Of a DNA stretch of 64,000 nt, positions 61,725-64,000 are shown one piece after another (the stretch's first letter is position 1; the number at the start of each line of letters is the position of its first letter). This DNA is from Eledone cirrhosa. Its lineage: Eukaryota. The position numbers and the translations under genes are program-made. The stretch covers positions 70,308,001-70,372,000 of the forward strand of contig OZ024740.1 in the NCBI GenBank assembly GCA_964016885.1, read 5' to 3'. The notes beneath the pieces are model-generated. The model was not told the DNA's origin and ran no database searches. It saw only the letters and a list, made by a program, of their open reading frames with translations.

Positions 61725-62542
61725 CAGGCCTACATAGTCTGTGGAATTAATGCTGCGAAACATGCGGTCACCATTAAACTGGTTTACACAGAGCCATTCA
61801 TGGCGGAATGTAAAACAGACAAGCAAACGAAATTCCACGAAACAATGAAATTAAAATATCCTTAGACCGTTATATGGAAATAATAAGGAACATAAAATGA
61901 AAGCGACAAGCCACTTGGACATAATTGTTTAACAGTTAAAACAATAAAGAGTTGTACTATGATTGATAGGTCATGCCCACCAGACTGTAACAATGCAGTC
62001 AATGAATATGGCATGGAGGAAAATAACTAAAACAAAATTAAAAGTAGTAGAGTGGCTATATTTCTGTTGATATATGAACGCTTACTCTCTCACGTATACA
62101 AAAACATGGGCAAATACACGTATATATACATATATATATATATATATATATATATATATATATATATATATATATATATATATATATATATATATATATA
62201 TATATATATATATATATATAAGTTGTAATAGAATGAAACGAAATTTCATTTCTCACTCTTAGTACGGCACTTACTTAAATGTAAGTATGTATGTATACGT
62301 ACATACATATATGTATACAGACGTACAGTAGCATGCATATATATATATATAAAATATATATACATATATACATACAGGTACACATATATACATGTACGTA
62401 TCAGTTTAGCGGACGTTCATTATGACGCCCGCTTTGTCCGTTTGTAAACGGACAGCCTGATTTATGCCGTACGGACAGCCTGATTTATGCCGTACGGTGT
62501 TAAGGCAACCACGTCACCTTTTTGTTCAACACTGACACAGGA

Positions 62543-62585
62543 ACGATGTACTAGTTTCAAGCTTCTTAGCTATCATCAGCACCGT
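62543..62585 (-). ncRNA. Minimal type I hammerhead ribozyme (family H)
   Basis: Reverse complement of 63265-63307. Confidence 0.85.
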
Positions 62586-63264
62586 ATACCCTTCTGCCAG
62601 ATGGTTGAACATTCGAAAGTATATACTTTCCTTATGAAAATTAACGGCTGAGCAGCCTAATTTGCATATCGAGTGAGTTCAGTCGGCCAGGCGTACCGAA
62701 AACGATAAGTTGTAATAGAATGAAACGAAATTTCATTTCTCACTCTTAGTACGGCACTTACTTAAATGTAAGTATGTATGTATACGTACATACATATATG
62801 TATACAGACGTACAGTAGCATGCATATATATATATATATATATATATATAATATATATATATATATATATATATATATATATATATATATACATACAGGT
62901 ACACATATACATGTACGTATCAGTTTAGCGGACGTTTATTATATATATATATATATATATATATACATATATATATATATATATATATATATATATATAT
63001 ATATATATATATATATATATATATATGCATGCTACTGTACGTCTGTATACATATATGTATGTATGTATACATACATACTTACATTTAAGTAAGTGCCGTA
63101 CTAAAAGTCAGAAATGAAATTTCGTTTCATTCTATTACAACTTATCGTTTTCGGTACGCCTGGCCGACTGAACTCATTCGATATGCAAATTAGGCTGCTC
63201 AGCCGTTAATTTTCATAAGGAAAGTATATACTTTCGAACGTTCAACCATCTGGCAGAAGGGTAT

Positions 63265-63307
63265 ACGGTGCTGATGATAGCTAAGAAGCTTGAAACTAGT
63301 ACATCGT
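63265..63307 (+). ncRNA. Minimal type I hammerhead ribozyme (family H)
   Basis: acggtg-CTGATGA-t agct aaga agct t-GAAA-ctag-TA-catcgt. Confidence 0.85.
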
Positions 63308-64000
63308 TCCTGTGTCAGTGTTGAACAAAAAGGTGACGTGGTTGCCTTAACACCGTACGGCATAAATCAGGCTGTCCGTTTGTTTACAAACGGACAAAGC
63401 GGGCGTTATAATAAACGTCCGCTAAACTGATACGTACATGTATATATGTGTACCTGTAAGTATATATATATATATATATATATATATATATATATATATA
63501 TATATATATATATATATATATATATATATATGCATGCTACTGTACGTCTGTATGCATATATGTATGTACGTATACATACATACTTACATTATATATATAT
63601 ATATATATATATATATATATATATATATATATATATATATATAATAGAAATAACGCCTATGGAAGCATCTTAGCTACCATCAGACACATATATATAGAGA
63701 GAGAGAGATAGATAGATAATATACATATATATATATATATGTATATATATGTATATATATATGTATATACATATATATATACGTATATATATATACGTGT
63801 ATATATATATATATATATATATATATATATATATATATATATATATATATATATATATATATATATATATATATATAACATAAATTACAATCAAATGGTG
63901 TTTAAAACAATTAATAGCTTACAATCGTTTCATCTAGACATAAGTATGATATCATCGGAGCATACGAAGGTTAAAACAAATATTTTACATTGAGCTACTT

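Follow-up and report, generated by a model that had tools for sequence, protein, structure and literature searches.

Within a 64,000-nt stretch of the Eledone cirrhosa genome (the window), two copies of a hammerhead-bearing repeat, family H, lie side by side, each exceeding one repeat unit. The sequence-only reading of this DNA had regarded their different start points as a circular permutation, and had proposed reverse transcription around an RNA circle of about 490 nt, as for retrozymes. The question raised by the locus is what kind of RNA template gave rise to such copies, and which enzyme inserted them.

A two-armed insertion in the window

The window maps to C1, in a genome of 3.0 Gb. Positions within the unit are numbered u1-u432, corresponding to window 63027-63458, with a (TA)n tract following u432. 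The left and right copies are opposed arms of a single insertion in (TA)n, arranged head-to-head and inverted. The relevant features are reported below.

62121-62220, no strand: (TA)n target microsatellite flanking the insertion on its left, read from the sequence
62218-62943, minus: left arm, 726 bp, period 487, 1.49 units, ending at the long site L (u119)
62218-62275, minus: 58-nt "tail" (u62-119), confined to the left end of the window insertion
62337-62372, no strand: internal (TA) tract separating units of the left arm, 36 nt
62373-62823, minus: full left-arm unit, which includes a private 19-nt duplication (about 62454-62472)
62543-62585, minus: predicted type I hammerhead motif of the left arm, same sequence as the right one
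62894-62943, minus: 5'-truncated start of the left arm, u381-432
62944-63026, no strand: (TA) tract linking both 5' ends head to head
63027-63590, plus: right arm, 564 bp, period 505, 1.1 units, ending at the short site S (u59)
63183-63190, plus: octamer-like ATGCAAAT, upstream of the hammerhead
63224-63231, plus: TATA-like GTATATAC, upstream of the hammerhead
63265-63307, plus: predicted type I hammerhead motif of the right arm
63459-63531, no strand: internal (TA) tract of the right arm, 73 nt
63591-63643, no strand: (TA)n target microsatellite flanking the insertion on its right
29517-29806, plus: separate one-armed copy of an older subfamily, about 0.65 unit, ending at L

Read from 62943 to 62218 on the minus strand, the left arm is made up of u381-432, (TA), u1-432, (TA) and u1-119, and its period of 487 counts in the private duplication; the right arm, on the plus strand, is made up of u1-432, (TA) and u1-59. 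These measurements agree with the earlier estimates of about 1.5 units with a period of 487 and about 1.1 units, as well as with the single hammerhead per unit and the (TA)-rich tract inside the unit that had been noticed. Over 380 nt the two arms are 99% complementary, forming a palindromic insertion; this likeness is not due to chance. Both arms carry the uncommon allele G at u414, found in 2 of 42 young insertions. The longest stop-free frame of the unit spans 68 codons, and the unit is non-coding.

The third, diverged copy announced by the sequence-only reading is present at 29517-29806, where u255-432 is followed by u2-113, 82-87% alike; it is, however, shorter than one unit, and the CUGANGA (5') half of its hammerhead is missing.

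Two consecutive complete hammerheads on one strand are absent from the window locus, which carries one per strand; it is therefore an end product of copying and no source of unit-length RNA. Taken alone, it says nothing about a circle, and it cannot itself release a monomer.

Several other elements were observed nearby. A degenerate hammerhead-like scrap resembling family H lies between two TA tracts just past the right arm, at 63655-63690 (-). Diverged PLE RT fragments (+) are found about 140 bp past the window end (L001:2570-3380); they are not joined to the right arm, from which TA tracts and other sequence separate them. Two further inverted pairs, at 23367(-)/23461(+) and 59835-60088/60476-60729, belong to another hammerhead family (TTTTGT CTGATGA ... 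GAAA TATGTA), and a similar repeat terminates a Hydra-type element at locus L206. The hammerhead motif at 53975 (+) matches the one carried by the pLTRs of an autonomous family of Neptune type (L094, L098, L106). Other CUGANGA...GAAA candidates, some with a palindromic helix III, are located at 36369(+), 15780(-), 55890(-), 4739(+) and 2398(+). Broken LINE remnants (endonuclease, RT, zinc finger), which we take to be L1/Tx1-like, occupy 17850-20420 (-) and 6606-7196 (-), and a weak tRNA-like match at 25030-25100 (-) is probably a SINE head.

Insertion ends across family H and the enzyme involved

Exact matching across the genome gave 30,100 hits with a 34-mer located close to the 3' end, 4,247 with the hammerhead core and 454 with the young subfamily of the window, as against 0 with reversed control patterns. 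A sample of 173 merged stretches (614 kb) was picked by best DNA match, hammerhead pattern or the 3' 34-mer. Within it 215 insertions were called, of which 7, located at stretch edges, were left out and 208 were used; 101 of these are two-armed. As regards arm length, the set picked by the 34-mer alone is unbiased: 27 of its 83 arms reach at least one unit and 56 are shorter, so that multimers are a minority. Outside the window locus, 36 of 309 arms carry at least two hammerheads, and tandem arrays span 2 to about 85 units, each of 432 nt plus (TA)n.

The terminal 3' ends fall almost exclusively at two sites. Among the 161 identified in the first 121 stretches, 81 map to S (u46-70, mode 61) and 77 to L (u101-122, mode 119), about 58 nt apart, and 3 lie elsewhere. 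For 38 of the 101 two-armed insertions one end was lost or unclassified; the 63 scored as intact all combine one S with one L end (sides split 37 and 26), with 0 S+S and 0 L+L cases. The window insertion has L on the left and S on the right. Of the classified ends, 228 of 252 run into (TA)n, and a clear 8-9 bp TSD flanks one copy outside (TA)n. The 5' ends are scattered across the unit, many at or in the TA tract, and 5 of 252 fall at most 6 nt from the predicted cut, which is no excess.

Mapping the starts and ends of family copies onto the unit, a check that had been suggested for all genomic copies, revealed two 3' sites and spread 5' ends instead of free permutation. The differing start points hold for the 5' ends, while the 3' ends are the two fixed ends of the family. 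Because 158 of 161 3' ends are fixed, and because partial tandems of 1.1-1.5 units are usual for Penelope-like insertions, circular permutation loses its value as evidence; what looked like permutation is 5' truncation from two fixed starts. Fixed ends joined to a Penelope ORF had been named as an observation that would count against the circle: the 3' ends are indeed fixed, but no Penelope ORF is joined to them. The broader proposal, a retrozyme-like element copied by reverse transcription, is supported.

Partial tandems, an inverted 5' arm, a tail at one end and a (TA)n target are described for Penelope-like insertions in the available text of PMC8557442. According to the sections available of PMC11167929, purified PLE protein starts reverse transcription in vitro at two internal sites, between which the tail lies, and extends both strands; the paired 3' ends of family H match these two starts and the two-strand extension. 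Family H is very probably a Penelope-type two-ended insertion.

In 53 of the 63 two-armed insertions the L arm runs past S, so that both cDNAs cover the same stretch; the remaining 10 resemble simple twin priming, with an L arm that ends close to S. The lengths of S and L arms are uncorrelated (rho 0.12, p 0.34), with cases such as S 2741 vs L 443, and the reverse. These data bear on an origin at the DNA level, by fold-back copying of one arm, gene conversion or satellite-type unequal crossover, which would need no special RNA template. Self-priming has been proposed for PLE palindromes (PMC3846280, in the part available), and secondary amplification is real in family H, as indicated by a higher-order repeat of about 8 units in a C2 array and by mosaic sharing among units in some arrays. 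Fold-back copying is nevertheless rejected because arm lengths are uncorrelated; moreover, the inner ends are out of phase, and the strict S+L rule and the (TA)n/TSD ends are marks of retrotransposition. For the two arms a DNA-level origin is largely refuted and judged very improbable, but it is still valid for long arrays.

The C2 array (C2:60568742-60612078, L201-L205) is an H satellite of about 85 units containing the higher-order repeat and nested retroelements. Since long arrays also grow at the DNA level, as this one does, array length is no evidence of rolling. Family H shows how satellites arise from dispersed insertions that act as their seeds.

An autonomous driver was searched for in the same genome, which has many C-terminal GIY-YIG elements. 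Neptune-type elements with zinc fingers, RVT_1 and GIY-YIG are present, as is an active, young Hydra-type Penelope family (L262-L290), bearing DKT and CxCX5C, marks of this type as defined in the available text of PMC8557442. Among its copies, which are 95-98% alike, are many open frames of 900+ codons. The 3' UTR of this family is long, a hammerhead is present, and about 100 nt separate its two ends; the autonomous families carry hammerheads and paired ends of their own. Unit H was the repeat of an autonomous PLE at none of 80 inspected loci (30 GIY-YIG, 20 long-ORF regions, 30 Hydra-type), which carry other pLTRs and make up a small part of the 10,595 GIY-YIG candidates. Best local scores of unit H against autonomous pLTRs and 3' ends were at or just above shuffle level. 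PLE matches occur in 14 of the 173 stretches, those inspected being nested or neighbouring insertions, and no RT + GIY-YIG ORF was found between H repeats, the unit itself having no ORF. Three apparent H/Hydra chimeras (C2:60612078, C1:411 Mb, C1:18.49 Mb) were rejected as nested insertions, and a tail-like motif in a Neptune-type pLTR was discarded, as it scored 44 vs 34-40 for shuffles and was not at a matching end. Among the Neptune-type pLTRs, those at L061, L092, L107 and L108 show a hammerhead with a U3-A8 core variant and a palindromic ACCGGU helix III.

The hammerhead motif and the template of the two arms

The motif at 63265-63307 comprises helix I ACGGUG/CAUCGU (6 bp), CUGAUGA, helix II AGCU/AGCU (4 bp) and GAAA, with helix III inside the palindrome ACUAGU. 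All core nucleotides are present, and cleavage is predicted after 63301, the position given by the sequence-only reading. The usual G10.1-C11.1 pair is absent from the family H hammerhead. An Rfam scan at gathering thresholds gave no hammerhead match in the window; the motif matches HH9 weakly (18.1 bits vs a cut-off of 52), and Rfam miRNA matches were rejected as (TA)n artefacts. Helix I continues into a rod (fold z -2.8). In the monomer, helix III has a 2-nt loop and cannot close; the double-hammerhead arrangement, known for metazoan type I motifs (PMC4209133, part available), has a folding energy of -19.0 kcal/mol vs -19.8 for the best dimer fold, a gap of 0.8.

Subfamily consensuses differ at up to 81 positions, none of them in the core, which is intact in 64 of 70 segments of the unbiased sample. 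The helix I pair u242:u278 is G-U in 182, A-U in 44 and U-G in 31 of 262 segments, rows that are related and in many cases were picked by the motif itself. The circular fold of the unit is far better than that of shuffles (z -7, 60 shuffles), which is not circle-specific, because the hairpins are local. Arms pass the predicted cut without scars: no indel was found there in any of 74 segments chosen regardless of the hammerhead, and scars occur in 2 of 274 segments overall. In the sources as available, the in vitro cleavage of PLE-type hammerheads is poor (PMC4209133), no cutting was seen with 8 of 9 Xenopus dimers (10.64898/2026.07.22.740005), and PLE insertion in vitro did not require it (PMC11167929). 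Contigs from four runs of unrecorded kind yielded nothing on starts, ends or joints of a family H RNA, and thus speak neither for nor against its expression.

Upstream of the hammerhead, at window 63183-63231, lie ATGCAAAT and GTATATAC, presumably octamer-like and TATA-like motifs, which form a possible internal promoter. Their position before the hammerhead suggests that family H may be a pLTR closed on itself. An octamer-like and then a TATA-like motif are likewise found in a second non-coding hammerhead family (CTGTA CTGATGA AGGGT; loci L100, L103, L181).

The template was investigated through variants shared by the arms. At 18 polymorphic non-CpG sites of 46 young two-armed insertions, the two arms of an insertion have the variant in common in 31 cases and differ in 9, compared to 8% sharing, with a maximum of 24% in 2000, when arms are shuffled. 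Sequences diverge by 1.6% inside an arm, by 1.4% from one arm to the other and by 2.9% from insertion to insertion, as computed on 65 young insertions, with 2 duplicates dropped, from pairs that are not independent. The clearest case, the insertion at C2:44952760-44957005, has two arms of 3.2 + 5.3 units (8 full units plus ends). These show 0 differences and have five variants in common, and at 8 of the 9 junctions the (TA) gap measures 55-59 nt. Its A77C haplotype has 9 copies in this assembly, all inside the insertion; a second haplotype has 11, of which 8 inside and 3 elsewhere. The A77C case is a single insertion, whose source could sit on a haplotype outside this assembly. The shared alleles, the scarless passage of the cut and a variant present nine times in one insertion fit a single monomer that probably served as template again and again, on both sides of the break and most simply in the form of a circle.

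The same ends would be expected if a Penelope-type two-site insertion used an uncut linear multimeric transcript, deriving from a young array or from two transcripts of the same locus, with the hammerhead as a pLTR-derived passenger. Such a template accounts for the fixed ends, the scarless cut passage and the allele sharing, and arrays able to provide multimers exist (the 36 arms with two or more hammerheads, the 85-unit C2 array). In the portions available, the in vitro PLE study favours uncut linear RNA, unprocessed RNA being the main substrate and no reads ending at the cut (PMC11167929). However, units of the same rank in the two arms should then resemble each other, and this was not seen in a weak test on 20 insertions (169/7040 differences for same-rank vs 139/10162 for other-rank units), nor, in an equally weak test, after omitting two zero-divergence insertions (about 3.1% vs 3.3%). 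A source with at least five identical A77C units would also be required, which is absent from the assembly, while the origin of the first array of identical variant units and the conservation of the hammerhead core would be left unexplained. We regard a linear multimer as possible, but rather doubtful.

A linear monomer, bounded by two hammerhead cuts or by TA tracts and copied repeatedly by end-to-end template jumps, would likewise explain identical units by a single template molecule. Variable (TA) gaps could mask the jumps, and many 5' ends are at or in the TA tract. The cut site shows neither scars nor an excess of 5' ends, though, and the gaps are near-constant in the youngest insertion, so that template jumping appears unlikely. 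Mutation spectra were also compared, with a view to scars of RNA editing: A>G changes account for 21 of 68 insertion-wide vs 26 of 310 private variants, an excess that repeats two subfamily alleles, and singletons include 30 A>G vs 19 T>C, with 5 vs 4 recurrent sites.

We consider it fairly likely that family H is a hammerhead repeat of about 490 nt written into (TA)n by a PLE enzyme in trans, which would probably use a single monomer RNA in circular form as its template on both sides of the break; a circular monomer as template is, in itself, a reasonably probable assumption. Points against this reading are the prevalence of arms below one unit, the missing pair and low Rfam score of the motif, the poor or dispensable cutting of PLE-type hammerheads in published work, the dependence on one A77C insertion, the (TA) gap lengths, whose similarity inside insertions exceeds that across insertions only weakly (p=0.05), and the lack of sequence shared by the unit with the driver elements inspected. 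The more detailed scheme, where two Penelope-type RTs on opposite sides of the break start at fixed internal sites and roll round a single ribozyme-made RNA circle, may have a slightly better than even chance of being correct. Tandem source loci would be transcribed, hammerheads would cut as a dimer via the palindromic helix III, and the cut monomer would then be ligated. A dimeric RT-GIY-YIG protein would nick both strands, with one cDNA beginning at S and the other at L. How far one RT travels round the template would not depend on the other RT, whose cDNA it would displace, and the two cDNA 5' ends would be joined. If true, the two-RT circle would be the missing step joining animal retrozymes, the PLE tail and the tandem and inverted structures of PLEs.

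Comparison with known systems

Metazoan non-LTR retrozymes are described, in the available text of PMC7229834 and 10.64898/2026.07.22.740005, as non-coding units, a few hundred nt in length, that bear a single type I hammerhead and are scattered through genomes in anything from monomers to long tandem arrays; a circRNA template and a PLE driver have been proposed for them. Family H resembles them, as its unit is non-coding, carries one type I hammerhead, falls in the range of about 150-1000 nt and occurs from monomers to arrays. In those papers, as far as available, the PLE connection rests on co-occurrence and pLTR homology, whereas family H provides a base-level PLE footprint: two fixed ends, one per arm, head-to-head arms and a (TA)n target, with a variable (TA)n inside the unit. 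The window locus falls outside the retrozyme definition of an active copy as one with two consecutive hammerheads, and self-cleavage and circRNA are predicted for family H.

With the EN+ Penelope-like elements, as portrayed in the parts available of PMC8557442, PMC11167929 and PMC4209133, family H shares 5' truncation, partial tandems, an inverted 5' arm, a tail at one end, a hammerhead with palindromic helix III, (TA)n targeting and two internal starts. Unlike them, it has no ORF, its tail is about 58 nt long vs 30-40 in PLEs, the whole element is pLTR-sized, and no pLTR homology was found to any autonomous family examined. MRC1 and other non-autonomous Chlamys PLEs of Chlamydomonas are likewise non-autonomous, pLTR-forming and multicopy head-to-tail; unlike family H, according to the available text of PMC8557442, they share 3' ends with autonomous partners and mostly have no hammerheads. 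For family H no such partner was found among the 80 autonomous loci. Judged by its sequence, family H behaves both as a non-autonomous Penelope-like element and as a non-LTR retrozyme, the features that can be tested on sequence being found at the family level.

To account for PLE tandems and the spread of retrozymes, reverse transcription round a circle made by a ribozyme was put forward in 2014 and 2020 (PMC4209133, PMC7229834), and base-level genomic evidence for circle copying is not given in the available text of these two papers. A description of family H, or of two-arm, one-template evidence, was not found in the openly accessible literature covered. Family H offers a defined 490-nt substrate with two mapped starts, a strict one-site-per-arm rule and very young insertions; a circular vs a linear template can therefore be directly tested, in vitro and in RNA. 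Family H is probably a Penelope-mobilised retrozyme-like element, of a known kind, whose mechanism becomes newly testable.
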